In this document: one piece after another, positions 2,449 through 62,588 of the stretch | Numbering within the stretch: the first letter of the stretch is position 1 | Layout of the letters: each line of letters begins with the position of its first letter | The notes under the pieces: generated by a model | Seen by the model: only the letters and a program-made list of their open reading frames with translations | What the model was told of the DNA's origin: nothing | Database searches by the model: none | Translations under genes and position numbers: made by a program | Sequence record: OQ223305.1 | Source: Escherichia phage EO1 | Strand: one strand, 5' to 3' | DNA: 64,000 nt

Positions 2449-2967
2449 ATGCCACATTTCAACGAATGTAGTCAACTGATCGAAGGCGCTGATAAAGCTC
2501 AAAATGAATATTGGGATATTCTCGGTGATGAAAAAGACCCGCTGCAGGTAATGCTTGACATGCAGAAATCTCTGCAAATTCGTTTAGCTAAAGATAAACC
2601 TGAATATAATCGTCATCCTGATGACTTGGCTACTGCCGGTGAAGTTGTTGATTGGTTGCGTAATCAGAAAGATTATATTGACGATGAATTCCGTGAACTT
2701 CTGACTTCTCTTGGTGGTATGAGTAATGGTGAAAAAGACGCATCTGCTGTATGGAAACCTTGGAAGTCGCAGCATGGTGAGCGTCGTGAAACTCTGATTA
2801 CTGATTTGTCTCCGCAAGACCAGTTAGAAATTAAATTTGAAATGATTGATATTCTTCATTTCGTTCTGAATATGTTCCAGGGTCTTGGTCTTACAGCTGA
2901 AGAAATCTTTAAACTTTATTACCTGAAAAATGCTGAAAATTTCGCACGTCAGGACCGAGGTTATTAA
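2449..2967 (+). CDS. 56: dCTP pyrophosphatase (dCTPase) gp56, MazG-like
   Basis: 172 aa; MazG-like acidic motif DDEFRELL; C-terminus YYLKNAENFARQDRGY recognised as T4 gp56. Confidence 0.85.
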   Translation: MPHFNECSQLIEGADKAQNEYWDILGDEKDPLQVMLDMQKSLQIRLAKDKPEYNRHPDDLATAGEVVDWLRNQKDYIDDEFRELLTSLGGMSNGEKDASAVWKPWKSQHGERRETLITDLSPQDQLEIKFEMIDILHFVLNMFQGLGLTAEEIFKLYYLKNAENFARQDRGY

Positions 2968-3107
2968 TGTCTCGTTTAAATAAACGTCAACTCAAAAAGT
3001 TGAATAAGAAAAGGGCGAAAGCCCTTACTGCTTTATTACGTAATGAAATAACTAAAGAAATAGACCAAGAGATTATTGAACAACTCTGGAAAGCCGCTAA
3101 ATTGTAA
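2967..3107 (+). CDS. small basic hypothetical protein, 46 aa
   Basis: hand-translated MSRLNKRQLKKLNKKRAKAL...; TAATG overlap with gene 56 stop; below track cutoff. Confidence 0.35.
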   Translation: MSRLNKRQLKKLNKKRAKALTALLRNEITKEIDQEIIEQLWKAAKL

Positions 3108-3109
3108 GT

Positions 3110-3117
3110 TATAAATA
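3110..3117 (+). promoter_or_regulatory. T4 late promoter (TATAAATA) for soc
   Basis: exact TATAAATA about 32 nt upstream of soc ATG; Soc is a late capsid protein. Confidence 0.6.
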
Positions 3118-6200: not shown

Positions 6201-6799
6201 AATACTCAATAATGCAACTAAAAGATTTTAAAATAAAATCAATGGATGCATCGGTGCGTGCTTCTATTCGTGAAGAATTGCTTTCTGAAGGGTTTAATTT
6301 ATCTGAAATTGAACTTTTAATTCATTGTATTACCAATAAGCCAGATGACCATACTTGGTTAAATGAAATAATCAAATCTCGTTTGGTTCCAAACGATAAA
6401 CCTCTTTGGAGAGGTGTTCCAGTTGAGACTAAACAGGTGTTAAATCAAGGAATTGATATTATTACATTTGATAAAGTAGTATCAGCTTCATATGATAAAA
6501 ATATAGCTCTACATTTTGCTTCTGGATTAGAATACAACACACAAGTTATTTTTGAATTCAAAGCTCCTATGGTGTTTAATTTCCAGGAGTATGCTATAAA
6601 AGCTTTACGTTGTAAAGAATATAGTCCGAGTTTTAAGTTTCCGGATAGCCATCGCTATCGTAATATGGAATTAGTTTCAGATGAACAAGAAGTAATGATA
6701 CCAGCTGGAAGTGTATTTAGAATTGCGGATAGATACGAGTATAAAAAGTATTCAACATACACTATCTATACTCTTGATTTTGAAGGATTTAATCTATAA
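6197..6799 (+). CDS. modA: mono-ADP-ribosyltransferase, ModA-like
   Basis: 200 aa; R-S-EXE triad (WRGVP, SASYD, EQEVMIP); ATGA overlap with modB. Confidence 0.65.
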   Translation: MKYSIMQLKDFKIKSMDASVRASIREELLSEGFNLSEIELLIHCITNKPDDHTWLNEIIKSRLVPNDKPLWRGVPVETKQVLNQGIDIITFDKVVSASYDKNIALHFASGLEYNTQVIFEFKAPMVFNFQEYAIKALRCKEYSPSFKFPDSHRYRNMELVSDEQEVMIPAGSVFRIADRYEYKKYSTYTIYTLDFEGFNL

Positions 6800-7975: not shown

Positions 7976-9291
7976 CATTTGATGATTTGACAGAAGGCCA
8001 GAAAAATGCCTTTAACATCGTTATGAGGGCTATTAAAGAAAAGAAACATCATGTAACTATTAATGGACCTGCTGGTACTGGTAAGACTACTCTTACTAAG
8101 TTCATCATTGAAGCTTTAATATCTACGGGTGAAACTGGTATTATTTTAGCAGCTCCTACTCATGCAGCTAAAAAGATTCTTTCAAAACTGTCGGGGAAAG
8201 AAGCGAGTACTATTCACAGTATTCTTAAAATTAACCCAGTTACGTATGAAGAAAACGTTCTTTTTGAACAAAAAGAAGTACCAGATTTAGCTAAATGCAG
8301 GGTATTAATCTGCGACGAAGTGTCAATGTATGATAGAAAGCTCTTCAAAATTTTGCTTTCAACTATCCCACCGTGGTGTACTATAATTGGAATAGGCGAT
8401 AATAAGCAAATTAGACCTGTTGACCCAGGAGAAAATACTGCTTATATCAGTCCATTCTTTACACACAAAGATTTTTATCAGTGTGAACTTACTGAAGTTA
8501 AACGCAGTAATGCTCCTATTATTGATGTAGCTACTGATGTTCGCAACGGTAAGTGGATTTATGATAAAGTTGTTGACGGGCATGGAGTACGTGGATTTAC
8601 TGGTGATACCGCTTTACGTGATTTTATGGTAAATTATTTTTCAATCGTAAAATCATTAGATGATTTGTTTGAAAATCGCGTAATGGCATTTACGAATAAA
8701 TCTGTTGACAAGTTAAATAGCATTATTCGTAAAAAGATTTTTGAAACTGATAAAGATTTTATTGTTGGTGAAATTATTGTAATGCAGGAACCATTAATTA
8801 AAACATATAAAATTGATGGAAAGCCTGTATCAGAAATTATTTTTAATAATGGACAATTAGTTCGTATTATAGAAGCAGAGTATACATCAACATTTGTTAA
8901 AGCTCGTGGTGTTCCTGGAGAATATCTAATTCGTCATTGGGACTTAACAGTAGAAACTTACGGCGATGATGAATATTATCGTGAAAAGATTAAAATAATT
9001 TCATCTGATGAAGAGCTATATAAGTTTAACCTATTTTTAGGTAAAACGGCAGAAACTTATAAAAATTGGAACAAAGGCGGAAAAGCTCCATGGAGTGATT
9101 TTTGGGATGCTAAATCACAGTTCAGTAAAGTGAAAGCACTTCCTGCATCAACATTCCATAAAGCTCAGGGTATGTCTGTAGACCGTGCTTTCATTTATAC
9201 GCCTTGTATTCATTATGCAGATGCTGAATTAGCTCAACAACTTCTTTACGTTGGTGTAACACGTGGTCGTTATGATGTGTTTTATGTGTGA
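7972..9291 (+). CDS. dda: Dda SF1B DNA helicase
   Basis: 439 aa; Walker A GPAGTGKTT; N-terminus MTFDDLTEGQKNAFNIVMRAIKEKKHHVTINGPAGTGKTT recognised as T4 Dda. Confidence 0.93.
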   Translation: MTFDDLTEGQKNAFNIVMRAIKEKKHHVTINGPAGTGKTTLTKFIIEALISTGETGIILAAPTHAAKKILSKLSGKEASTIHSILKINPVTYEENVLFEQKEVPDLAKCRVLICDEVSMYDRKLFKILLSTIPPWCTIIGIGDNKQIRPVDPGENTAYISPFFTHKDFYQCELTEVKRSNAPIIDVATDVRNGKWIYDKVVDGHGVRGFTGDTALRDFMVNYFSIVKSLDDLFENRVMAFTNKSVDKLNSIIRKKIFETDKDFIVGEIIVMQEPLIKTYKIDGKPVSEIIFNNGQLVRIIEAEYTSTFVKARGVPGEYLIRHWDLTVETYGDDEYYREKIKIISSDEELYKFNLFLGKTAETYKNWNKGGKAPWSDFWDAKSQFSKVKALPASTFHKAQGMSVDRAFIYTPCIHYADAELAQQLLYVGVTRGRYDVFYV

Positions 9292-9297
9292 GGCTAT

Positions 9298-9558
9298 ATG
9301 ATTAACATCAATTCAAAATATTTAAATCGTCTAATAGATGGTATAAGGAAGCATACTAATAAGCAAGATAATCTCGATGTTATGGTAACAGGAGCTGAGC
9401 TCCTTCATAAGCTTTATCTTATAAGTGATACTATATTAGCAATTAAACGAATTGAAAAACAATCATATCACAGTAATACAGATACGGTAATTACACTAGA
9501 TGAAAGTGTCTGTAAATTACTAATTAAATTTGAGGAAGCTATTCGTGGAAATAACTAA
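9298..9558 (+). CDS. hypothetical protein, 86 aa
   Basis: ORF in track; possible member of small tandem family. Confidence 0.45.
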   Translation: MININSKYLNRLIDGIRKHTNKQDNLDVMVTGAELLHKLYLISDTILAIKRIEKQSYHSNTDTVITLDESVCKLLIKFEEAIRGNN

Positions 9559-10715: not shown

Positions 10716-10745
10716 GTTTACTTCCTCGGTTAGTTGTGGTATTAT
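10716..10745 (+). promoter_or_regulatory. T4-type early promoter
   Basis: GTTTAC 10716-10721, 18-bp spacer, TATTAT 10740-10745; imperfect inverted repeat flanks the -10. Confidence 0.55.
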
Positions 10746-11892: not shown

Positions 11893-12390
11893 ATGATTAT
11901 TAATATTGGTGAAATTGCTCGTGTATCTGATAAATCCCGTTCTAAAGCAGCAGGAAAATTGGTCGAAATTGTAAGCATTCAGCTTAAACACGGCGTTAAA
12001 GATGAAGATTCTGAAGTAAAAGTGCGTATCATTCCTAAAGATGGAAAGTCTAAACCTCAGTTTGGTTATGTTCGATGGAAATTTCTTGAGCCTGCGTTTT
12101 TGAAAGCTGTTCCCGCTAAAGGAATTGAAACGATTGATACTTCGCATGTAGGTGTAGACTTTAAGTGGAAACTCGGTCAGGCTATTAAGTTCGTTGCTCC
12201 TTATGAATTCGAATTTACTGAAGATGAGGAAGGGGTTGTTCAAAAACACCGTACTCGCGCTATGTGTGCATACATTACTGATCAATGGGTAGAAGACGGT
12301 GTTAAGCTGTACAACGCGGTATTTTTAGGAACATACAAAGTCATTCCTGAAAGTTGGATTAAACACTACAGCAAAGCTCGCTGTGCATAA
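11893..12390 (+). CDS. hypothetical protein, 165 aa, paralog of 11394-11816
   Basis: ORF in track; C-terminal AYITDQWVEDGVKLYNAV. Confidence 0.55.
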   Translation: MIINIGEIARVSDKSRSKAAGKLVEIVSIQLKHGVKDEDSEVKVRIIPKDGKSKPQFGYVRWKFLEPAFLKAVPAKGIETIDTSHVGVDFKWKLGQAIKFVAPYEFEFTEDEEGVVQKHRTRAMCAYITDQWVEDGVKLYNAVFLGTYKVIPESWIKHYSKARCA

Positions 12391-12423
12391 AGTTTAAATT
12401 TTTTTTTTTCATAAAACTATATA

Positions 12424-12470
12424 CATCAGTAGTTGATTATGGTACTATATCAATATCAACTACTGATACA
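12424..12470 (+). promoter_or_regulatory. early promoter -10 element inside a 13-bp inverted repeat (promoter/stem-loop cassette)
   Basis: ATCAGTAGTTGAT (12425-12437) and ATCAACTACTGAT (12455-12467) flank GGTACTATAT; same leader recurs at 20419 and 23828. Confidence 0.5.
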
Positions 12471-12491
12471 GAAAATAACTTGGAGAATAAA

Positions 12492-12761
12492 ATGGAAAAT
12501 TTAATTATCATCGAGCAATCTTTCAATGATTATGGTATGGCTTACGGTTATCGTGCGATAATGGAAGATTCTCGTGGATGTGTTATCGATATTGCTGAAT
12601 GTAAAGATTTACTGCAGCTTTTGAAGATTGTTCGCAAAAATTGGGATTGTGAAAACATTAAAGCTCGTGTTGTAACGGAAGAAGAAACTGTTTTTCATGA
12701 TGTAAAATTCGCCAAAGGTGCTGCTACTCTTCTGAAACGCATTGCTCCACTGTTCAATTAA
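12492..12761 (+). CDS. hypothetical protein, 89 aa
   Basis: ORF in track; ATG 12492 with GGAG RBS (track start 12480 is TTG). Confidence 0.5.
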   Translation: MENLIIIEQSFNDYGMAYGYRAIMEDSRGCVIDIAECKDLLQLLKIVRKNWDCENIKARVVTEEETVFHDVKFAKGAATLLKRIAPLFN

Positions 12762-13596: not shown

Positions 13597-13971
13597 ATGT
13601 TTAAAATCGGTAAGAAATATCGTGTTCGCGAAGGTGAAGAAAAGAAATATCTACTTTCTGCTAGTAATAGGAATGGTTCTATTAATGCCGTAATATCTAC
13701 AAGCGAATTTATCGTTGAAGATATGAAAGGTCATAATGTTACAATGATTAGTACAGCAACTAGCAGAAATGCTGGAAAAATTCTTCACAGTCTGCGGAGT
13801 GAAGTTCTAATTTATGATGAAGAATTTGACTTCTTCGAAGAAGTCACTGAAGATTTTGATTTTGAATGCACTATCACTATGAAATCTGGCGACCCTCTTT
13901 CTTTTACAGTTAAAGATGAAAGAAGTCGCTTGAGAATTATTAGTCTTCTTCAAGCCATTAAATTTGAGTGA
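13597..13971 (+). CDS. hypothetical protein, 124 aa
   Basis: ORF in track; ATG 13597 (track start 13591 is GTG). Confidence 0.5.
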   Translation: MFKIGKKYRVREGEEKKYLLSASNRNGSINAVISTSEFIVEDMKGHNVTMISTATSRNAGKILHSLRSEVLIYDEEFDFFEEVTEDFDFECTITMKSGDPLSFTVKDERSRLRIISLLQAIKFE

Positions 13972-13975
13972 AATT

Positions 13976-14236
13976 ATGAAATATATTAATCGTTCTATCG
14001 CAGCATTAGTATTAGCAGTGTCTTTAGCAGGATGTACTGATGCTGATAATGCAACCAAAATTTTGTCATCAAGCGGTTTTACTAATATTGAAATCACTGG
14101 ATACAATTGGTTCGGTTGCTCTGAAAATGATTTCCAACATACTGGATTTCGTGCTATTGGACCTACTGGGCAGAAAGTAGAAGGAACAGTATGTTCTGGG
14201 TTGTTCTTTAAGGATTCAACTATTCGTTTTAAATAA
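13976..14236 (+). CDS. predicted lipoprotein, 86 aa
   Basis: signal peptide with lipobox: MKYINRSIAALVLAVSLAGC-TDADN. Confidence 0.5.
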   Translation: MKYINRSIAALVLAVSLAGCTDADNATKILSSSGFTNIEITGYNWFGCSENDFQHTGFRAIGPTGQKVEGTVCSGLFFKDSTIRFK

Positions 14237-14258
14237 AAGGCCTTCGGGCCTTTAGCTT
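14236..14258 (+). terminator. rho-independent terminator
   Basis: hairpin AAAGGCC-TTCG-GGCCTTT; identical 18-mer at 62558. Confidence 0.65.
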
Positions 14259-14305
14259 TATGATTACCGGAGTATAATATTCCCGAAACCAAACGAGGAT
14301 AAGTG

Positions 14306-16123
14306 ATGATTAAGAATGAAATTAAAATTCTGAGCGATATTGAACATATCAAAAAGCGTAGTGGCATGTACATTGGCTCTTCTGCTAATGAAATGCATGA
14401 GCGCTTTCTGTTTGGTAAATGGGAAAGTGTTCAGTATGTACCTGGTCTTGTTAAGCTTATTGATGAAATTATCGATAACTCAGTCGATGAAGGTATTCGT
14501 ACTAAGTTTAAATTCGCGAATAAAATTAATGTTACCATTAAAAATAATCAGGTAACAGTTGAAGATAACGGTCGTGGTATTCCACAAGCGATGGTTAAAA
14601 CACCTACCGGTGAAGAAATTCCTGGTCCAGTTGCTGCTTGGACTATTCCAAAAGCGGGTGGTAACTTTGGTGATGATAAAGAACGTGTCACCGGTGGTAT
14701 GAATGGTGTTGGTTCTAGTTTAACTAACATTTTTTCTGTGATGTTTGTCGGTGAAACTGGCGATGGTCAAAATAATATTGTAGTTCGTTGTTCAAATGGT
14801 ATGGAAAATAAATCCTGGGAAACTATTCCTGGAAAATGGAAAGGAACTCGTGTTACTTTCATTCCTGATTTTATGTCATTTGAAACTAATGAGCTGTCCC
14901 AGGTTTATCTTGACATTACACTGGATCGTCTCCAGACACTTGCTGTCGTTTATCCTGATATTCAATTTACCTTTAATGGTAAAAAGGTTCAGGGCAATTT
15001 TAAGAAATATGCACGACAGTATGATGAACATGCTATCGTTCAAGAACAAGAAAATTGTTCTATTGCGGTTGGTCGTTCACCGGATGGATTTCGTCAATTA
15101 ACTTACGTGAATAACATTCACACTAAGAATGGTGGTCATCACATTGATTGTGTTATGGATGATATTTGTGAAGACCTTATTCCACAAATCAAACGTAAAT
15201 TCAAAATTGATGTAACTAAAGCACGCGTTAAAGAATGTTTGACTATCGTTATGTTTGTTCGTGATATGAAAAACATGCGATTTGATTCTCAAACTAAAGA
15301 GCGTTTGACTTCTCCATTTGGCGAAATTCGTAGTCATATTCAACTTGATGCTAAAAAGATTTCACGCGCTATTCTAAATAATGAAGCAATTTTAATGCCG
15401 ATTATTGAAGCTGCGTTGGCTCGTAAATTGGCGGCAGAAAAAGCAGCAGAAACTAAAGCAGCTAAAAAGGCTTCTAAAGCTAAGGTTCATAAACATATCA
15501 AAGCGAATCTCTGTGGTAAAGATGCTGACACTACTCTTTTCTTGACTGAGGGTGATTCTGCTATCGGATATCTTATTGATGTTCGTGATAAAGAACTTCA
15601 TGGTGGTTATCCATTGCGTGGTAAAGTTCTCAACAGTTGGGGTATGTCATATGCTGATATGCTTAAAAACAAAGAACTATTTGATATTTGCGCAATCACT
15701 GGATTAGTTCTTGGTGAAAAAGCTGAAAACTTGAATTATCATAATATTGCTATTATGACCGATGCTGACCATGATGGTTTAGGAAGCATTTATCCTTCTC
15801 TGCTCGGATTTTTTAGTAATTGGCCAGAATTGTTTGAGCAAGGACGAATTCGCTTTGTCAAAACTCCTGTAATCATCGCTCAGGTCGGTAAAAAACAAGA
15901 ATGGTTTTATACAGTCGCTGAATATGAGAGTGCTAAAGATGCTCTACCTAAACATAGCATCCGTTATATTAAAGGACTTGGCTCTTTGGAAAAATCTGAA
16001 TATCGTGAGATGATTCAAAATCCAGTATATGATGTTGTTAAACTTCCTGAGAACTGGAAAGAGCTTTTTGAAATGCTCATGGGAGATAATGCTGACCTTC
16101 GTAAAGAATGGATGAGCCAGTAG
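14306..16123 (+). CDS. 39: DNA topoisomerase II large (ATPase) subunit gp39, unsplit (39+60 equivalent)
   Basis: 605 aa; GHKL motifs IDNSVDEG, EDNGRGIP; TOPRIM LTEGDSA, DADHDG; single continuous frame. Confidence 0.9.
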   Translation: MIKNEIKILSDIEHIKKRSGMYIGSSANEMHERFLFGKWESVQYVPGLVKLIDEIIDNSVDEGIRTKFKFANKINVTIKNNQVTVEDNGRGIPQAMVKTPTGEEIPGPVAAWTIPKAGGNFGDDKERVTGGMNGVGSSLTNIFSVMFVGETGDGQNNIVVRCSNGMENKSWETIPGKWKGTRVTFIPDFMSFETNELSQVYLDITLDRLQTLAVVYPDIQFTFNGKKVQGNFKKYARQYDEHAIVQEQENCSIAVGRSPDGFRQLTYVNNIHTKNGGHHIDCVMDDICEDLIPQIKRKFKIDVTKARVKECLTIVMFVRDMKNMRFDSQTKERLTSPFGEIRSHIQLDAKKISRAILNNEAILMPIIEAALARKLAAEKAAETKAAKKASKAKVHKHIKANLCGKDADTTLFLTEGDSAIGYLIDVRDKELHGGYPLRGKVLNSWGMSYADMLKNKELFDICAITGLVLGEKAENLNYHNIAIMTDADHDGLGSIYPSLLGFFSNWPELFEQGRIRFVKTPVIIAQVGKKQEWFYTVAEYESAKDALPKHSIRYIKGLGSLEKSEYREMIQNPVYDVVKLPENWKELFEMLMGDNADLRKEWMSQ

Positions 16124-18580: not shown

Positions 18581-19519
18581 ATGTACAATATTAAATGCCT
18601 GACCAAAAACGAACAAGCTGAAATTGTTAAACTGTATTCAAGCGGTAATTATACTCAGCAGGAATTGGCTGATTGGCAAGGTGTATCAGTTGATACAATC
18701 CGTCGTGTTTTGAAAAATGCTGAAGAAGCTAAACGCTCTAAAGTTACTATTAGCGGTGATATTACAGTTAAAGTTAATAGCGATGCAGTTATTGCTCCAG
18801 TTACTAAATCTGACATTATTTGGAATGCATCTAAAAAATTCATTTCGATTACTGTCGATGGTGTAACTTATAATGCAACACCTAATACTCATTCAAACTT
18901 TCAGGAAATTCTCAATCTGCTTGTAGCGGATAAGCTGGAAGAAGCGGCACAAAAAATTAATGTTCGTCGCGCTGTTGAAAAATATATTTCCGGCGATGTT
19001 CGAATTGAAGGTGGAAGCTTATTCTATCAAAATATTGAATTGCGGTCTGGTTTGGTTGATCGTATTCTTGATTCGATGGAAAAAGGCGAAAACTTTGAAT
19101 TTTATTTTCCGTTCTTGGAAAATCTGCTGGAAAACCCAAGCCAGAAAGCGGTATCTCGACTTTTTGATTTCTTGGTAGCAAACGATATTGAAATCACCGA
19201 AGATGGTTACTTCTATGCTTGGAAAGTAGTTCGTGACAACTACTTTGACTGTCACTCAAACACCTTTGATAACAGTCCGGGTAAAGTAGTTAAAATGCCG
19301 CGTACTCGTGTGAATGACGATGATACACAAACTTGTTCTCGTGGTCTGCATGTGTGTTCTAAATCTTATATTCGTCATTTTGGCAGTTCAACCAGCCGAG
19401 TTGTAAAAGTTAAAGTTCATCCTCGCGATGTAGTATCAATTCCGATTGATTACAACGACGCTAAAATGCGTACCTGCCAATACGAAGTAGTTGAAGACGT
19501 TACTGAACAATTTAAATAA
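18581..19519 (+). CDS. rIIB: rIIB protein
   Basis: 312 aa; immediately downstream of rIIA. Confidence 0.9.
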   Translation: MYNIKCLTKNEQAEIVKLYSSGNYTQQELADWQGVSVDTIRRVLKNAEEAKRSKVTISGDITVKVNSDAVIAPVTKSDIIWNASKKFISITVDGVTYNATPNTHSNFQEILNLLVADKLEEAAQKINVRRAVEKYISGDVRIEGGSLFYQNIELRSGLVDRILDSMEKGENFEFYFPFLENLLENPSQKAVSRLFDFLVANDIEITEDGYFYAWKVVRDNYFDCHSNTFDNSPGKVVKMPRTRVNDDDTQTCSRGLHVCSKSYIRHFGSSTSRVVKVKVHPRDVVSIPIDYNDAKMRTCQYEVVEDVTEQFK

Positions 19520-19537
19520 GGGCTTCGGCCCTTAACT
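19520..19537 (+). terminator. hairpin, weak terminator
   Basis: GGGCTTCGGCCC hairpin; short T tract. Confidence 0.4.
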
Positions 19538-19547
19538 AAGGAAAATT

Positions 19548-19742
19548 ATGTTAGGTTATCAAGCACGAGTAAAAGAAGAATACGATCAATTAATGCTCAA
19601 AATTAATGCACTGAGTAAATTTTTAGAAAGCGCAAAGTTTCTAACGGTTAGTGCAGTTGAGCAAGAACTGTTACTTTCGCAGTTTATCTCAATGAAATCT
19701 TATGCTGAGTGTCTAGAGAAAAGAATTGCGCAATTCAAATAA
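19548..19742 (+). CDS. hypothetical protein, 64 aa
   Basis: ORF in track; AAGGAAAA RBS; bracketed by two hairpins. Confidence 0.5.
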   Translation: MLGYQARVKEEYDQLMLKINALSKFLESAKFLTVSAVEQELLLSQFISMKSYAECLEKRIAQFK

Positions 19743-19747
19743 AATAA

Positions 19748-19768
19748 GGGCTTCGGCCCTTTTGTTTT
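19748..19768 (+). terminator. rho-independent terminator
   Basis: GGGCTTCGGCCC followed by TTTTGTTTT. Confidence 0.7.
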
Positions 19769-19824
19769 AAGAGAAATTATGATTTATATGAATATCAGTG
19801 ATTCCGACATAAAGGAAAGTTTAA

Positions 19825-20397: not shown

Positions 20398-20428
20398 GTT
20401 TACATACCACAAGGACCGTGGTACTATA
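20398..20428 (+). promoter_or_regulatory. T4-type early promoter with conserved leader cassette
   Basis: GTTTAC 20398-20403; GTGGTACTATACAACTATCAACTACTGATACAG leader; drives only an 8-codon ORF (20465-20491). Confidence 0.55.
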
Positions 20429-20676
20429 CAACTATCAACTACTGATACAGATTTGGAGAATAAAATGAAAATCGCTGAGATTGAACTATGAGTTCATTAT
20501 GGTGGTGTTTTGTTTGGTTAATTAGTATTCCAGTAATTTGTTTAACATTTACTTTTGTGATGAGGTTATTATGAAAATTTTGAATTCTGTACTTATTGCT
20601 TGTGCGTGGTGGGTTGCGCAAGTTTCAGCAGTAGTAGTTGGTATTCACATTTATTACGAATATTTTTAAAAAAGTT

Positions 20677-23749: not shown

Positions 23750-23754
23750 TTTTA

Positions 23755-23780
23755 GGGAGAGCCGAGGCTCTCCCTTTTTT
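23755..23780 (+). terminator. rho-independent terminator
   Basis: GGGAGAGC-CGAG-GCTCTCCC followed by TTTTTT. Confidence 0.8.
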
Positions 23781-23806
23781 ATTTCAAAAATTTTTTTCAC
23801 AAAAAG

Positions 23807-23836
23807 GTTTACAACCAAAGCATACTGTGGTACTAT
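23807..23836 (+). promoter_or_regulatory. T4-type early promoter with conserved leader cassette (motA)
   Basis: GTTTAC 23807-23812, 18-bp spacer, TACTAT; leader identical to 20419-20450. Confidence 0.6.
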
Positions 23837-23877
23837 ACAACTATCAACTACTGATACAGAATTACGGAGATTAGAAA

Positions 23878-24513
23878 ATGTCTAAAGTAACTTACATCAT
23901 CAAAGCTTCTAACGATGTTCTGAATGAAAAAACTGCTGCGATTTTAATTACTATTGCTAAGAAAGATTTCATTACAGCCGCAGAAGTTCGTGAGGTGCAT
24001 CCAGATTTAGGTAACGCAGTAGTTAATAGTAATATTGGGGTATTGATTAAAAAAGGCCTGGTGGAGAAATCTGGTGATGGATTAATCATTACTGGTGAAG
24101 CTCAGGATATTATTTCAAATGCAGCAACTTTATATGCACAGGAAAATGCTCCGGAACTGCTGAAAAAACGAGCAACTCGTAAAGCTCGCGAGATTACTTC
24201 CGATATGGAAGAAGATAAAGACCTCATGTTAAAACTTTTAGATGAAAATGGATTTGTTCTTAAAAAGGTTGAAACTTATCGTAGTAATTATCTTGCTATT
24301 TTAGAAAAACGCACTTACGGAATTCGCAATTTTGAAATTAACAACAATGGAAACATGCGAATTTTTGGATACAAAATGATGGAACATCATATTCAGAAAT
24401 TTACTGATATCGGAATGTCTTGTAAAATCGCTAAAAACGGTAATGTGTATCTTGACATTAAACGTTCGGCAGAAAACATTGAAGCAGTAATCACTGTAGC
24501 ATCTGAACTGTGA
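23878..24513 (+). CDS. motA: middle-transcription activator MotA
   Basis: 211 aa; N-terminus MSKVTYIIKASNDVLNEKTAAILITIAKKDFITAAEV recognised as T4 MotA. Confidence 0.88.
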   Translation: MSKVTYIIKASNDVLNEKTAAILITIAKKDFITAAEVREVHPDLGNAVVNSNIGVLIKKGLVEKSGDGLIITGEAQDIISNAATLYAQENAPELLKKRATRKAREITSDMEEDKDLMLKLLDENGFVLKKVETYRSNYLAILEKRTYGIRNFEINNNGNMRIFGYKMMEHHIQKFTDIGMSCKIAKNGNVYLDIKRSAENIEAVITVASEL

Positions 24514-26605: not shown

Positions 26606-27262
26606 TTATTTAGCCCTTCCTAATATTCTGGCCGCCTGAGCACATATTGATTCAAGGCGGTCATTACTTATATGATCATTTCTATACCAGTACATAGTTA
26701 TCGTTCCAGCATAGATATTATCCAAATTAAAATATGGACAACTGTACATGTAGTTTATTTCGGGAGTAGGCTTTTTAGTTGGTAAAAAAGCAAATTTTGA
26801 GTTGGAATAATAATGACGTCCATTTAAATGAACTGTATATTCATCCATAGTTTTATCAACAGGATATCCTCCAAGTGATTTTTCACTTATTGTTGAAGGT
26901 AATTTTCCTTCATATGCTATAATATCAACAAAATAGTTTAAGTTTTTAGGGCGGAAAGAATACACCGCACTAAAGTCTGCCTCAGATGATATATGAACTA
27001 TCTGGAGTTGTTCCAGGGCGACAGATTCAAAGCGTGCATTTCTTTCCTTTTCAATAATTTCACTGTATGTTTCATACTTTGATTGCTTATAGTACTCAAA
27101 GAAACTATCTCCCCTATACCAAACAATCGCCATTATAAACAAAAGAATTACGACAGCTACCCGGGAAGCAAGAACATTCCCGGTAGCGTTATCTTTGAAC
27201 AAGCGATCTAGAACACCCAACAGAATATCAGAGGGCGAAAATGATATTCTAGGTACTGCCAT
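26606..27262 (-). CDS. t: holin T
   Basis: 218 aa; single N-terminal TM segment plus large periplasmic domain; adjacent to tail-fibre genes as in T4. Confidence 0.85.
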   Translation of the reverse strand: MAVPRISFSPSDILLGVLDRLFKDNATGNVLASRVAVVILLFIMAIVWYRGDSFFEYYKQSKYETYSEIIEKERNARFESVALEQLQIVHISSEADFSAVYSFRPKNLNYFVDIIAYEGKLPSTISEKSLGGYPVDKTMDEYTVHLNGRHYYSNSKFAFLPTKKPTPEINYMYSCPYFNLDNIYAGTITMYWYRNDHISNDRLESICAQAARILGRAK

Positions 27263-39864: not shown

Positions 39865-40797
39865 ATGTTTAAACGTAAATCTACTGCTGAACTTGCTGCA
39901 CAAATGGCTAAACTGAATGGCAATAAAGGTTTTTCTTCTGAAGATAAAGGCGAGTGGAAACTGAAACTCGATAATGCGGGTAACGGTCAAGCAGTAATTC
40001 GTTTTCTTCCGTCTAAAAATGATGAACAAGCACCATTCGCAATTCTTGTAAATCACGGTTTCAAGAAAAATGGTAAATGGTATATTGAAACATGTTCATC
40101 TACCCACGGTGATTACGATTCTTGTCCAGTATGTCAGTACATCAGTAAAAATGATTTATACAACACTGACAATAAAGAGTACGGTCTTGTTAAACGTAAA
40201 ACTTCTTACTGGGCTAACATTCTTGTAGTAAAAGACCCAGCTGCTCCAGAAAATGAAGGTAAAGTATTTAAATACCGTTTCGGTAAGAAAATCTGGGATA
40301 AAATCAATGCAATGATTGCAGTTGATGTTGAAATGGGTGAAACTCCGGTTGATGTAACTTGTCCGTGGGAAGGTGCTAACTTTGTACTGAAAGTTAAACA
40401 AGTTTCTGGTTTTAGTAACTACGACGAATCTAAATTCCTGAATCAATCTGCGATTCCAAACATTGATGATGAATCTTTCCAGAAAGAACTGTTCGAACAA
40501 ATGGTTGACCTTTCTGAAATGACTTCTAAAGATAAATTCAAATCGTTTGAAGAACTGAGCACTAAGTTCAGTCAAGTTATGGGAACTGCTGCTATGGGCG
40601 GTGCCGCAGCAACTGCCGCTAAGAAAGCTGATAAAGTTGCTGATGATTTGGATGCATTCAATGTTGATGACTTCAAAACAAAAACTGAAGATGATTTTAT
40701 GAGCTCAAGCTCTGGCAGTTCATCTGGTGCTGATGACACGGACCTCCTTGTCCTTCCATGGTACTATACAACTATCGGCAATACTGCTGATGATTAA
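39865..40797 (+). CDS. 32: ssDNA-binding protein gp32 (variant C-terminus)
   Basis: 310 aa; [23 protein letters not shown]; zinc site [10 protein letters not shown]; ends ...[22 protein letters not shown]. Confidence 0.92.
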
Positions 40798-40810
40798 AGA
40801 GGAAAATAAT

Positions 40811-41041
40811 ATGGCTAAAGTTGATATTGACATCGTTGATTTTGAATATATTGAAGAGATTATTCGTAATCGTTATCCTGAACTTAGTATCACAAGTATT
40901 CATGATGATCCCAATTATTGCAATTTTTCTATTGTCATTGAAGGTCCTCTTGAAGACCTCACCCGCTTTATGGCTAATGAATATTGTGATGGCATGGATT
41001 CTGAAGACGCAGAATTTTACATGGGACTGATTGAACAATAA
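40811..41041 (+). CDS. hypothetical acidic protein, 76 aa
   Basis: ATG 40811 with GAGGAAAA RBS (track start 40727 is alternative). Confidence 0.5.
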
Positions 41042-41087: not shown

Positions 41088-41474
41088 GTGGAAGTTGGAA
41101 AAACTTATATCATTAACCCTTTATTTAAAAATGACTTTGCTAACGAGTGCCGTTGCAATGTAATGATGCTAAATTTAATAGAGAAGCACGGACCTAGTTT
41201 TGTTGTAGATGAAATGGAAAGTGATGATTGTGCTGGTGAATGTGTGGTACGTGTAACTATGGAAGATGGTACTGAATACATGGCGGGTGGCCCACTTGAG
41301 ACGTATTTTGAGATTTACTCTGAAGAATTCAAATACTTTACTGAGGTAACTTTAGAAAAGCCTCAATCCGCTAATGAAGGTATAGTTTCTGGCGTAACAA
41401 AAATTCACTGCATTGTTGACGAAAACAATGTAGATGAAATCATTGAACTTTTGCGAAAAACTTTTAAGGCCTAA
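41088..41474 (+). CDS. hypothetical protein, 128 aa, probable GTG start
   Basis: ORF in track; GAGGA 7 nt upstream of GTG 41088. Confidence 0.5.
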   Translation: MEVGKTYIINPLFKNDFANECRCNVMMLNLIEKHGPSFVVDEMESDDCAGECVVRVTMEDGTEYMAGGPLETYFEIYSEEFKYFTEVTLEKPQSANEGIVSGVTKIHCIVDENNVDEIIELLRKTFKA

Positions 41475-42047: not shown

Positions 42048-42407
42048 ATGTCTGACATTCATGTAGCTGGAATTGCTCGAGTAAGTATTCGTTGCCAACT
42101 TAAAACTGTACCCGGGACGGCTTATATTAATTTATCACACGACCTATGTTCTAGTGAAAGACCATTAACTGGTGTAATTACGTTTTACGCTGGAGTTGGC
42201 GGAAACGAATTTACTGTAGGCGAATTTGTTGGTCATAAATTAAAAGTTCAGAAGAATGTGTTAGAACTTTTTAATGACCTTTATGATGATAGCGATGAAG
42301 TTTTTGATGAAATCGCACAAGCAGTTAACAAAGGAATGGTAACTTTAGTTAAAATGATTAACTCTATCGGATATGCTCCTGACCCTTTTCGATGGGAGAT
42401 AATATAA
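42048..42407 (+). CDS. hypothetical protein, 119 aa
   Basis: ORF in track. Confidence 0.55.
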   Translation: MSDIHVAGIARVSIRCQLKTVPGTAYINLSHDLCSSERPLTGVITFYAGVGGNEFTVGEFVGHKLKVQKNVLELFNDLYDDSDEVFDEIAQAVNKGMVTLVKMINSIGYAPDPFRWEII

Positions 42408-42499
42408 TTTTTGTATTTGAGTTTATGAATGATGAATTCTATTATGCAATGCTTTAAAAATTGCATAGTCTTGATTTAAATGAATTTGAGGAAAATATA

Positions 42500-43419
<920 letters not shown>

Positions 43420-43439
43420 AATAACACGTGGCGGAAAAT

Positions 43440-43787
43440 ATGAATTTTAATTATTACCCTATTCTATTAGAAAAAGACGCGAAACAACCAAAATGGCAAG
43501 GTCCTCAGTTTATTAAAGGCGTCTATCAATTAGTAGTTCCTAAAGACAAGATTTATAGCAGTTGTTTCACTGAATCCGCTTGTAGTATTTTCGGTAATAG
43601 TTCTCCGTATTGGAATTTTGATATAAAGCTTGACAGAAATATCGATATTTGGTTGAAAGCTATGGATATCGGCAATATCACGTTTGATGAGAATAATTAT
43701 CATATTATTGGTCGCTTTTCCAAGCGTGGTAAAGAATTGTATTTTACGCCTGAAATTGAAAGAAAATTTGATGCTAAACCGTATTGA
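43440..43787 (+). CDS. hypothetical protein, 115 aa, between frd and td
   Basis: ORF in track (alt start 43428); no motif recognised. Confidence 0.5.
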   Translation: MNFNYYPILLEKDAKQPKWQGPQFIKGVYQLVVPKDKIYSSCFTESACSIFGNSSPYWNFDIKLDRNIDIWLKAMDIGNITFDENNYHIIGRFSKRGKELYFTPEIERKFDAKPY

Positions 43788-43831
43788 TTATTAGCTTCAT
43801 AAAATGTATTATAATTTATATAAGGTACTAA

Positions 43832-52470: not shown

Positions 52471-53670
<1,200 letters not shown>

Positions 53671-54401: not shown

Positions 54402-54929
54402 ATGAGCGAATGGTTTGAAGAAGATAAGGTTTATCGCTTTAAAGCTGGATATAAAGATATTTTTAATGAAACTTGCGGGGCTAATAAACGAATTGCCCAG
54501 TTTATTGGGGAAAATTCATTTAAAGTAAAAATAGATCCTGCGAAAAATGTTATTAGCATTAAACGCGAAATTGATGATTGTTGGTATAAAGCTGTTGATG
54601 TAATGGGTGAATCCTATAAAGTTAGCCCGTTATTTTCAATTGCTTATATGTTAGAATATTCTTTTTTCGAAGAAGTTCAAAAAGATGATTCTACAAGTAA
54701 ATTTGAAATTAAAGCTGATAAAGAAATTAAGTGGAAAGTAGTAGGTATTACTGGTTGTATGTTCTATATCTATGCTCAAACTGATACGAAGGAAGAAGCT
54801 AAAAAGAAAGCTCTAGAATATCTTGAAGAGTATGAAGAAGGCCCGGTAATGATTACCCAAGATGCCGAATTAGTTTCTGTCAAATTAGTTAAAAACGTTG
54901 AAAGTAAGGAGCTGGGATCAACATGCTAA
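54402..54929 (+). CDS. hypothetical protein, 175 aa
   Basis: ORF in track; GAGGAAA RBS. Confidence 0.55.
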   Translation: MSEWFEEDKVYRFKAGYKDIFNETCGANKRIAQFIGENSFKVKIDPAKNVISIKREIDDCWYKAVDVMGESYKVSPLFSIAYMLEYSFFEEVQKDDSTSKFEIKADKEIKWKVVGITGCMFYIYAQTDTKEEAKKKALEYLEEYEEGPVMITQDAELVSVKLVKNVESKELGSTC

Positions 54930-55159: not shown

Positions 55160-55494
55160 TGAATTTAACTGATATAATTGATAATTGTCTTGAAAATGAT
55201 ACTGGCGATCATAGAGCGCTTGATTCTGAAACAGCACAGTTCATTAGAATAACTTTGATGAACGATACTCTAGTGAATAGTATTCATCCTTCTGTGTATG
55301 ATGCTATTATTGTGACGAAGTATCCAGTTGAGCTTCACAAAAAGATGGCTGGTGCAATTTTTATTGATAAGAAAAACCGCTTTAAAGATGGGCAGAATAT
55401 AATTAGTTCTGTTATTAAAAGTATAACTAAACTTCGTCACGAAATTTATCGTGTTGAAACTGCTAAATCTGCTTATCTGGTGATTATGAAATGA
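55156..55494 (+). CDS. hypothetical protein, 112 aa
   Basis: ORF in track; ATGA overlaps. Confidence 0.55.
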   Translation: MMNLTDIIDNCLENDTGDHRALDSETAQFIRITLMNDTLVNSIHPSVYDAIIVTKYPVELHKKMAGAIFIDKKNRFKDGQNIISSVIKSITKLRHEIYRVETAKSAYLVIMK

Positions 55495-58632: not shown

Positions 58633-58642
58633 AATAAAATGA

Positions 58643-58656
58643 GGGGCTTCGGCCCC
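58643..58656 (+). terminator. hairpin, possible terminator
   Basis: GGGGC-TTCG-GCCCC; short T tract. Confidence 0.4.
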
Positions 58657-58673
58657 TTACTGAGGAAAATACT

Positions 58674-62374: not shown

Positions 62375-62559
62375 AAGCTTACTTAGAAACAATTATCGTG
62401 GCTCAAAAAGAAGGTGGAGATGTTTCTACTTCTGTATCACAAATTATGATTGAATTTATAGATGCATATGCTTATAATAAATTTACAGAAACATTTGATG
62501 CCTACGAAAAAGGTCCAAAGTTTGAAATATATCGTACTCTATTACCAATAGATTATTAA
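62371..62559 (+). CDS. hypothetical protein, 62 aa
   Basis: ORF in track. Confidence 0.5.
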   Translation: MKAYLETIIVAQKEGGDVSTSVSQIMIEFIDAYAYNKFTETFDAYEKGPKFEIYRTLLPIDY

Positions 62560-62580
62560 AGGCCTTCGGGCCTTTAATTT
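62558..62580 (+). terminator. rho-independent terminator
   Basis: AAAGGCC-TTCG-GGCCTTT then TTTAATTT; same 18-mer as 14236. Confidence 0.65.
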
Positions 62581-62588
62581 TATAAATA
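62581..62588 (+). promoter_or_regulatory. T4 late promoter (TATAAATA) for alt
   Basis: exact TATAAATA about 24 nt upstream of alt ATG with GAGAGGA RBS. Confidence 0.6.

Follow-up and report, generated by a model that had tools for sequence, protein, structure and literature searches.

Three near-identical early promoter/leader cassettes in a Tequatrovirus genome, one of them with its -10 element inside an inverted repeat

The three cassettes described here lie in a stretch of 64,000 nt from Escherichia phage EO1 (OQ223305.1), which was analysed as a whole and is referred to below as the window. The window is of Tequatrovirus origin, and its + strand is the early-gene strand. The order of genes is motB, copy 1, an 89-aa ORF, cef, goF, unsplit gene 39, rIIA, rIIB, denB and copy 2, followed by the ndd cluster, gene 52, a terminator, copy 3 and motA. 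Around copy 1, identity to phages including BECP11, MLF4 and AR1 is 97%, and the region of copy 2 is 100% identical to RB18. Copies 1 and 2 are 8 kb apart and flank rII; copies 2 and 3 are 3.4 kb apart. All copies, three in the window and six in T4, are located within early-gene regions on the early strand. An "ori type 2 repeat" is annotated in Kha5h inside motB; it was rejected as an annotation of the cassette on account of this location. The features of the three loci are collated below.

11893-12390, + strand: motB (PF17613), directly before copy 1
12391-12419, + strand: AT-rich upstream tract of copy 1, UP-element-like, with a T11 run; follows the motB stop and corresponds in the alignment to TTTCACAAAAC of the other copies
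12420-12425, + strand: degenerate -35 of copy 1, TATACA (TTTACA in the other copies; from sequence)
12425-12437, + strand: left arm of the copy-1 inverted repeat, ATCAGTAGTTGAT, within the promoter spacer (from sequence and fold)
12440-12448, + strand: extended -10 of copy 1, TGG-TACTAT (TACTAT at 12443-12448), in the hairpin loop (from sequence and fold)
12455-12471, + strand: predicted +1 of copy 1 (12455) and invariant first 17 transcribed nt (from homology to T4 Pe26.4)
12455-12467, + strand: right arm of the copy-1 inverted repeat, ATCAACTACTGAT, perfect complement of ATCAGTAGTTGAT
12482-12494, + strand: SD and putative RegB/S1 site of copy 1, GGAGAATAAAA (consensus match), then the ATG (12492-12494) of the 89-aa ORF
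12492-12761, + strand: 89-aa ORF (orphan; phrog_3720), after copy 1
20398-20427, + strand: copy 2, -35 GTTTAC, 17-bp spacer, TGG and -10 TACTAT (T4 orthologue annotated in X75802)
20405-20410 / 20418-20423, + strand: weak 6-bp stem of copy 2, in the spacer
20434-20450, + strand: predicted +1 of copy 2 and invariant 17-nt transcript start (exact 17-mer)
20455-20491, + strand: SD and putative RegB site of copy 2, GGAGAATAAAA (consensus match), then an 8-codon ORF
20465-20491, + strand: this ORF, MKIAEIEL and stop; the stop overlaps the start of ndd.6 (ATGA, 20488-20491)
23754-23781, + strand: intrinsic terminator (terminator scan), 9-bp G+C-rich stem (hairpin 23754-23775) and T run, directly upstream of the copy-3 promoter
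23807-23836, + strand: copy 3, -35 GTTTAC, spacer, TGG and -10 TACTAT (from sequence)
23843-23859, + strand: predicted +1 of copy 3 and invariant 17-nt transcript start (exact 17-mer)
23866-23880, + strand: SD and RegB-like site of copy 3, GGAGATTAGAA (10/11 consensus positions), and the ATG of motA
23878-24513, + strand: motA, after copy 3 (MotA domains PF09114 and PF09158 confirmed)

The extent of the repeat was determined as follows. The 31-nt sequence GGTACTATAYNNNTATCAACTACTGATACAG was matched on the + strand of the window at 12441-12471, 20420-20450 and 23829-23859, and no match was obtained in the 100 dinucleotide-preserving shuffles that served as the null. The 17-mer ATCAACTACTGATACAG is present exactly at 12455, 20434 and 23843, and apart from these sites the window has a single near-match, which is the reverse-strand arm (12421-12437). 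Every copy is followed by GGAG and then by ATG (12492-12494, 20465-20467 and 23878-23880). The original prediction had placed a cassette of ~45 bp at these three loci; the loci were borne out, with coordinates correct to within 1 nt, and the repeat is real, but it is not a single contiguous block. The unit consists of an invariant core of 31-32 nt (TGn to +17) and of an SD/ATG block, which are separated by 4, 6 or 10 variable nt. Across the 32 nt from TGn to +17, the pairwise identity of the three copies is 91-100%, whereas the identity of the three copies to the other early promoters of the window over the same 32 nt has a mean of 50% and a maximum of 69%. The copies therefore align beyond the generic promoter consensus, and the refuting condition set in the original prediction, an alignment limited to this consensus, fails. 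On the 5' side of TGn, the three copies resemble each other no more than early promoters do generally. The presence of three near-identical early promoter/leader cassettes is confirmed, and the cassettes are probably functional.

A T/A-rich tract of the type TTTCA(C/T)AAAA was found in all three copies. Copies 2 and 3 read TTTACA-N17-TACTAT with a TG, and copy 1 reads TATACA-N17-TACTAT with a TG, that is, with one mismatch in the -35. The expectation of a GTTTAC-type -35 before each copy thus held for copies 2 and 3, but not for copy 1 (TATACA at 12420-12425). The copy-1 promoter was not called in the sigma-70 scan of the window because only 8/12 consensus positions match; in view of this 8/12 match and of the weak -35, copy 1 may be a weak or decayed promoter. 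Judged by their sequence elements, copies 2 and 3 conform fully to the textbook T4 early promoter. The early promoters of T4 with which the copies were compared (Pe26.4 and those of motA and the ndd region; Hinton 2010, PMC2988021; X75802; in part Liebig & Ruger 1989) occupy orthologous loci and are near-identical, sharing with the copies the UP tract, the -35 GTTTAC, the TGn, the -10 and a +1 at the seventh nucleotide after the -10, with no substantive difference. The copies carry the sequence elements that define a T4 early promoter (Pe), a class that works without the help of phage factors, and promoter activity is predicted for them.

The transcription starts were assigned with the aid of T4 data. 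The region following Pe26.4 is cited as beginning at map unit 27,044, and the region following Pe40.4 at 41,225 (Patterson-West et al. 2018). The T4 positions 27,044 and 41,225 are each the seventh nucleotide after the -10, and the 17-mer has its first A at 27,044. By homology to T4 Pe26.4, with the 7-nt rule also checked at Pe40.4, the +1 of the three copies is predicted to be the A at 12455, 20434 and 23843; given these positions, the invariant 17-mer would be the exact 5' end of the mRNA. Six T4 coordinates at expected starts were sought in one supplementary file of a T4 NAD-cap/dRNA-seq preprint, and none was found in it.

For the leaders of the three copies, the predicted folds were no more stable than those of shuffles, z lying between 0 and +1. 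A protective hairpin at the 5' terminus of the leader was considered and rejected, since only 4-5 A/U-rich pairs would form, the z value is no better than that of shuffles, and the pairing is broken in CCU7. With Rfam at a permissive threshold, no RNA family was found at any of the three copies. The strong RegB/S1 cleavage consensus GG*AGRAYARAA (Uzan & Miller 2010, PMC3014915) is matched at 11/11 positions by copies 1 and 2 (GGAGAATAAAA) and at 10/11 positions by copy 3 (GGAGATTAGAA). Known RegB/S1 targets comprise a GGAG with an A-rich tail, intergenic and unpaired, in early mRNA (PMC3014915); the copies are alike, copy 3 being one position off. In the fold predicted for copy 1, the GGAG lies outside any stem. 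On these features, the three copies fit the description of a strong RegB/S1 site and would be expected to act as one.

Copy 1 was predicted to sit in a perfect 13-bp inverted repeat flanking its -10, and its arms (12425-12437 and 12455-12467) are indeed perfectly complementary. The spacer reads as the first 13 transcribed nt in reverse complement, so that the -10 comes to lie in the loop of a hairpin. This hairpin was calculated at -20.2 kcal/mol (z = -6.2, fold versus shuffles). Its 18 bp are interrupted: a stem of 13 bp leads through a 2x2 internal loop to 5 further base pairs, which are closed by a loop of 3 nt. Because RNA started at 12455 would not contain the 5' arm, the hairpin is expected only in RNA begun upstream, namely in motB read-through transcripts. 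The 51-nt palindrome is identical in 434 of the 587 matching phage records, so covariation in the stem is uninformative. The one informative variant comes from a single genome, VEc74, in which the stem is extended to 16 bp by two substitutions and the -35 is weakened.

Two familiar roles were tried for the copy-1 hairpin. The stem is A/T-rich and followed by ACAGAAAATAAC, with no U tract, and the hairpin is absent from the list of the terminator scan, in which the hairpin upstream of copy 3 is included; an intrinsic (Rho-independent) terminator was rejected on these grounds. Masking of the SD or start codon, as in the gene e/soc type, was rejected because the stem, which ends at 12467, excludes the SD at 12482-12485, 14 nt downstream. 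With neither an SD in the stem nor a U tract, the hairpin thus falls outside both classes. The hairpin of T4 gene e (PMC3014915) resembles that of copy 1 in that the 5' arm lies upstream of an internal start and only read-through RNA folds; it differs in that its 3' arm hides the SD/start codon and its promoter is a late one, whereas copy 1 has an early promoter and an SD 14 nt past the stem. As a best guess, given somewhat less than even odds, the hairpin of copy 1 might insulate, attenuate or 3'-end-stabilise the motB read-through RNA. Control by a promoter inside a hairpin, as in gene e, also operates in T4 soc, 49 and I-TevI, where again a late promoter is involved and the SD or start codon is hidden by the 3' arm.

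Hairpins of this design were then counted among the early promoters of T4 and of the window. In 16 of the 31 T4 early promoters, pairing of the promoter's own spacer with its own leader contributes at least 8 kcal/mol, with the -10 in the loop. Chimeric spacer/leader combinations were used as controls, and a gain of at least 8 kcal/mol was reached by 14% of these; the observed T4 mean was reached in 0/2000 permutations. The same pattern was found in 10 of the 15 early promoters of the window. The sequences of the arms vary between promoters, which points to selection on symmetry and not on one binding sequence, and the 3' arm often contains the SD; in the window, the SD is hidden in the hairpin at the early promoters at 10716, 20677, 51039 and 57809. 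Between the window and T4, the stems differ by 3 substitutions in 268 positions, all of them pair-preserving, versus 28 substitutions in 263 unpaired positions, a number raised in part by a single locus whose sequence diverges on the downstream side of its promoter. Roughly every second early promoter would thus lie inside a hairpin that can be formed by read-through RNA only; this pattern, to which the stem-loop of copy 1 belongs, is statistically supported.

The cassettes were also compared with the promoter-early stem-loop (PeSL) elements, as which they had been labelled. A PeSL is composed of an AT-rich tract, a sigma-70-like promoter, a stem-loop, an SD and an ATG; five subclasses are distinguished by the position of the stem-loop, which is most commonly found between the boxes or overlapping the -10, and the stem-loop is proposed to attenuate incoming upstream transcription, one example of which was shown (Arbiol et al. 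2010, PMC2839356). Described positions of the stem-loop are the AT-rich region upstream, an overlap with the -35 or with the -10, the interval between these boxes, and a site past the -10. The attenuating role guessed for the hairpin of copy 1 is consistent with this proposal of the PeSL authors. The T4/PST pair was later added to the phages with PeSLs, the promoter consensus being TTTACW-N17-TAYWAT, and an exchange in the ndd region is illustrated (Comeau et al. 2014, PMC4122927). The three copies possess the AT tract, the promoter, the SD and start codon at the 3' end, and the repetition in early regions. A stem-loop in a described position, over the -10 or upstream of the -35, is found in copy 1 (13+5-bp stem, "-10-overlapping" subclass) and in copy 3 (upstream terminator hairpin), respectively, whereas copy 2 has only a weak 6-bp stem in its spacer that is no better than shuffles (z = -0.43). 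The PeSL stems of RB49/phi1 are G/C-rich (GGGG...CCCC), and one of them attenuates; the copy-1 stem is A/T-rich and derives from the leader of the promoter itself. PeSLs are further characterised by demonstrated promoter activity, terminator/attenuator activity and recombination into mini-circles, and by their location at insertion, deletion or replacement junctions between close relatives. The PeSL label thus agrees with the data, and the assignment of the three copies as PeSL-type cassettes is supported by their composition.

Orthologous copies are present in T4 (NC_000866) at 6594 (cef), 167050 (ndd.6) and 163637 (motA), and the copy at 6594 carries the identical 13-bp inverted repeat; the promoter orthologous to copy 2 is annotated in GenBank X75802. 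Further T4 copies lie outside the range of the window at 27044 (imm.1), 70660 (e.8) and 55348 (nrdC.10, with a 3-nt deletion), and the subfamily with the invariant +1..+17 block comprises 6 of about 31-40 T4 early promoters. Shorter relatives, in which CTATCAACTAC(T)G runs directly into the SD, occur at several other early promoters, and a +1 region with CTATCAACTAC is also present in the imm promoter of a Dhakavirus. In F2 (Tequatrovirus efftwo), early promoters of other sequence types are found at the same three positions; the 17-mer is therefore dispensable at these loci, since F2 is without it at motA, at cef and downstream of denB. The e.8 locus is the only one at which F2, CCU7 and a Mosigvirus retain the cassette. 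When IMG/VR was scanned for exact occurrences of TATCAACTACTGATAC, the hits were largely due to chance, in contigs without relation to these phages, and they were discarded.

The cassettes had further been proposed to mark points of recombination and module shuffling. Mosaicism was observed among the T4 paralogues: the promoters at 55384 and 146875 are identical from the UP tract as far as ACAACTATC and diverge completely beyond, and those at 27080 and 166807 have the spacer in common and a different leader. The converse, one leader combined with differing spacers, was also seen. At the junction of gene 32 and frd.3, a half-promoter is present in the window and a full promoter in T4. The first 12 coding nt of the copy-2 mini-ORF (the MKIA codons) are those of the start of T4 imm.1, and the mini-ORF looks like the relic of a cassette that was moved along with the 5' end of a gene. 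Of 18 gaps in the colinearity of the window with T4, 3 have an edge inside an early-promoter cassette, the cassettes making up 2.6% of the window (p about 0.04). The sole indel between the window and T4 beside one of the copies is a 209-bp deletion, by which T4 is without most of the 89-aa ORF; this deletion, next to copy 1, was rejected as a cassette-mediated event because it joins two AAAATT repeats (ordinary microhomology). No break in gene content relative to T4 was found at copies 2 and 3. In favour of the proposal are the mosaic paralogues, the half-promoter, the replacement in F2, the relic ORF and the 3/18 gaps at early-promoter cassettes (p about 0.04); the microhomology deletion at copy 1 and the unbroken gene content at copies 2 and 3 speak against it. 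On this sequence evidence, a role of the cassettes in recombination and shuffling is suggested with moderate confidence.

The following interpretation is considered likely: the three cassettes would be paralogous immediate-early expression cassettes of Tequatrovirus, the T4 version of the PeSL. Host sigma-70 RNA polymerase would fire the three promoters immediately after infection, and the transcripts would begin at the A located 7 nt past the -10 and open with the invariant AUCAACUACUGAUACAG (17 nt). A short, unstructured, A/U-rich spacer would follow, then the SD, doubling as a strong RegB/S1 site, and then the ATG. The open leader would let motA, the genes of the ndd region and the ORF preceding cef be translated efficiently, until cutting by RegB within the GGAG would end translation and cause rapid shut-off. 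The copies would be kept alike by common descent and by recombination among promoter regions with about 100 bp of homology, which would make them substrates for PeSL-type cassette swapping. In the motB read-through RNA, the copy-1 hairpin might insulate, attenuate or mark the read-through transcripts. Sequence anatomy, paralogy, T4 orthology, fold energies and the hairpin pattern were computed in this work; promoter activity, the +1 and RegB cleavage are what we infer by homology to T4, and the function of the hairpin is a proposal.

Other explanations were weighed against this interpretation. The copies could be alike because selection converged on the best-performing promoter and initial transcribed sequence, and not by descent, recombination or mobility. 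Initial transcribed sequences do affect promoter escape, and a +1 region with CTATCAACTAC is common to many early promoters, including the imm promoter of the Dhakavirus; however, the identity reaches the first four codons (MKIA) of the copy-2 mini-ORF and of imm.1, for which a role in the promoter is not plausible, the mosaic paralogues have sharp junctions, for example at ACAACTATC, and the related lineages F2 and Mosigvirus retain the cassette at e.8 only, all of which makes convergence very improbable. The inverted repeat of copy 1 could also be a relic without function, left behind by an inverted duplication or by mutation templated on a quasi-palindrome, and preserved solely by the close similarity among Tequatrovirus genomes. 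Its left arm is merely the reverse complement of the family leader, templated mutation at quasi-palindromes (Ripley) is reportedly classical in T4, and a 51-nt region that is 100% identical in 434/587 records offers almost no variation for testing selection. A relic is nevertheless unlikely: the design recurs with different sequences in about half of the T4 early promoters, far above the chimeric controls, the stems are better conserved than the adjacent unpaired bases, the stem of VEc74 (a single genome) is lengthened to 16 bp at the cost of the -35, and the different cef promoter of F2 also has a spacer/SD inverted repeat.

Two readings concern the symmetry of the start region itself. The palindrome of copy 1 would form a divergent promoter pair if RNA antisense to the 3' end of motB were started from the minus strand, where TGATATAGT (extended -10) is followed 7 nt later by the same ATCAACTACTGAT; the minus-strand TATAGT with its properly spaced TG is nearer to the consensus than the plus-strand TACTAT, and 22 antisense start sites are reported in a T4 dRNA-seq study. 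The minus-strand side has, however, no usable -35 (TCTGTA) and no AT-rich UP tract, the promoter is not listed by the sigma-70 scan, and none of the T4 coordinates tried was found in the one supplementary file of the dRNA-seq preprint, so that a divergent pair is regarded as highly unlikely. The 13-nt dyad ATCA-N5-TGAT at +1..+13 could, in turn, be the operator of a dimeric phage or host protein that represses these early promoters, with copy 1, carrying two inverted sites around the -10, as the most tightly controlled. Each arm is itself a partial palindrome exactly at +1, and the block is invariant at the three window loci and at six T4 loci. The reading is attractive because the shut-off of early promoters is unexplained, its mechanism being called not understood (PMC2988021; PMC3014915), and an operator, if real, would provide a handle on the abrupt shut-off of T4 early transcription. 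Against it, the arms of the -10 hairpins elsewhere among the early promoters are unrelated in sequence, the promoters of motA, cef and the ORF following denB are devoid of the dyad motif in F2, the e.8 copy of CCU7 has CGAT in place of TGAT, and no candidate binding protein was identified. That the dyad serves a putative factor which switches off this subset of promoters, that of motA included, is given only the slimmest of chances.

The immediate-early cassette interpretation is largely one of a feature that is already known: T4 has the same elements at corresponding places, the promoters have been in the literature for decades, and the PeSL class has been published. The finding is chiefly a confirmation of what is textbook knowledge for T4 and of PeSLs as published, to which it adds modest, quantitative detail, namely that the invariant part extends exactly from TGn to +17, that the SD is a consensus RegB site, and that the hairpin pattern exists; the genome-wide quantification of hairpin-embedded early promoters is the only part that may go slightly beyond the known literature. 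For the phage, the cassettes would set the timing and strength of expression of the first genes, including motA, the activator of middle transcription. With about 100 bp of portable homology, T4-like phages could swap, duplicate and delete small early genes.

Early promoters enclosed by a hairpin with the -10 element in the loop accounted for 10 of the 15 early promoters in the window and 16 of the 31 in T4. The promoter spacer forms the 5' arm and the first transcribed bases form the 3' arm, which in four cases also contains the Shine-Dalgarno sequence. The frequency of such promoters far exceeded that in chimeric controls, in which spacers and leaders of different early promoters had been joined, and the stems are kept between the window and T4.

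Hairpin-embedded early promoters of the window (position of the -35 element)
3428, + strand
5521, + strand
10716, + strand; Shine-Dalgarno in 3' arm
12418, + strand
20677, + strand; Shine-Dalgarno in 3' arm
41739, + strand
51039, + strand; Shine-Dalgarno in 3' arm
54342, + strand
57809, + strand; Shine-Dalgarno in 3' arm
58201, + strand

The palindrome of copy 1, the cassette preceding an 89-aa ORF, was found in a longer-stemmed form in a single genome, that of phage VEc74 (MT932213). The stem, 13 bp long in the window, reaches 16 bp there (-27.8 kcal/mol) through two A>G substitutions at the equivalents of window positions 12423 and 12468, which also weaken the -35 element (TATACA to TATGCA). 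On the - strand, the same palindrome carries an extended -10 element, TGATATAGT (12444-12452), followed 7 nt on by ATCAACTACTGAT; an antisense transcript could start here and run into the 3' end of motB. The ORF itself (12492-12761, between motB and cef) was assigned to phrog_3720 and gave no Pfam match; most of it is gone from T4 through a 209-bp frame-shifting deletion between two AAAATT repeats.

At copy 2, an 8-codon ORF (MKIAEIEL*, 20465-20491) begins at the cassette ATG. T4 imm.1 begins with the same 12 nt as this ORF, whose stop codon overlaps the ndd.6 start codon (ATGA). The ORF is probably what a cassette transfer left behind, now serving as a coupled upstream ORF.

In the more distant Tequatrovirus F2 (sequences L134 and L135), early promoters occupy the same three genomic positions, namely upstream of cef, after denB, and in the order terminator-promoter-motA (L134 5021-5080, L134 13645-13700 and L135 3085-3197). 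Their sequence types differ, and two of the three have inverted repeats of their own around the -10 element.

A half-promoter was observed at the gene 32/frd.3 junction (40745-40815). It consists of the TGG-TACTAT-ACAACTATC core plus the frd.3 leader and lacks the UP tract and -35 element seen in T4, which is approximately 118 bp longer; the junction falls within the promoter itself.

Topoisomerase gene 39 (14303-16123) is one unbroken 606-codon ORF, in which approximately 50 nt (15723-15775) stand in for a 1.1-kb T4 segment that carries mobA, 60.1 and the translational-bypass region of gene 60. T4 segments carrying dam, segF, the I-TevI-containing td intron and the nrdB intron are absent from the window.

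Sites of absent T4 segments
2386-2407
2967-3110
44380/44381
48915/48918

Additional DNA relative to T4
9291-9523
13599-13974
42105-42837
43427-43829
52473-52769
54404-54924

G+C-rich hairpins with UUCG loops, near-identical within families (AAGGGCTTCGGCCCTT and GGCCTTCGGGCC), were also noted, some of them called as terminator-like by the scan.

UUCG-loop hairpins
19509-19546
19737-19775
58633-58670
also 14233-14266
also 62555-62588

Alongside the early-promoter cassettes, these families constitute a second class of regulatory repeats in the window.
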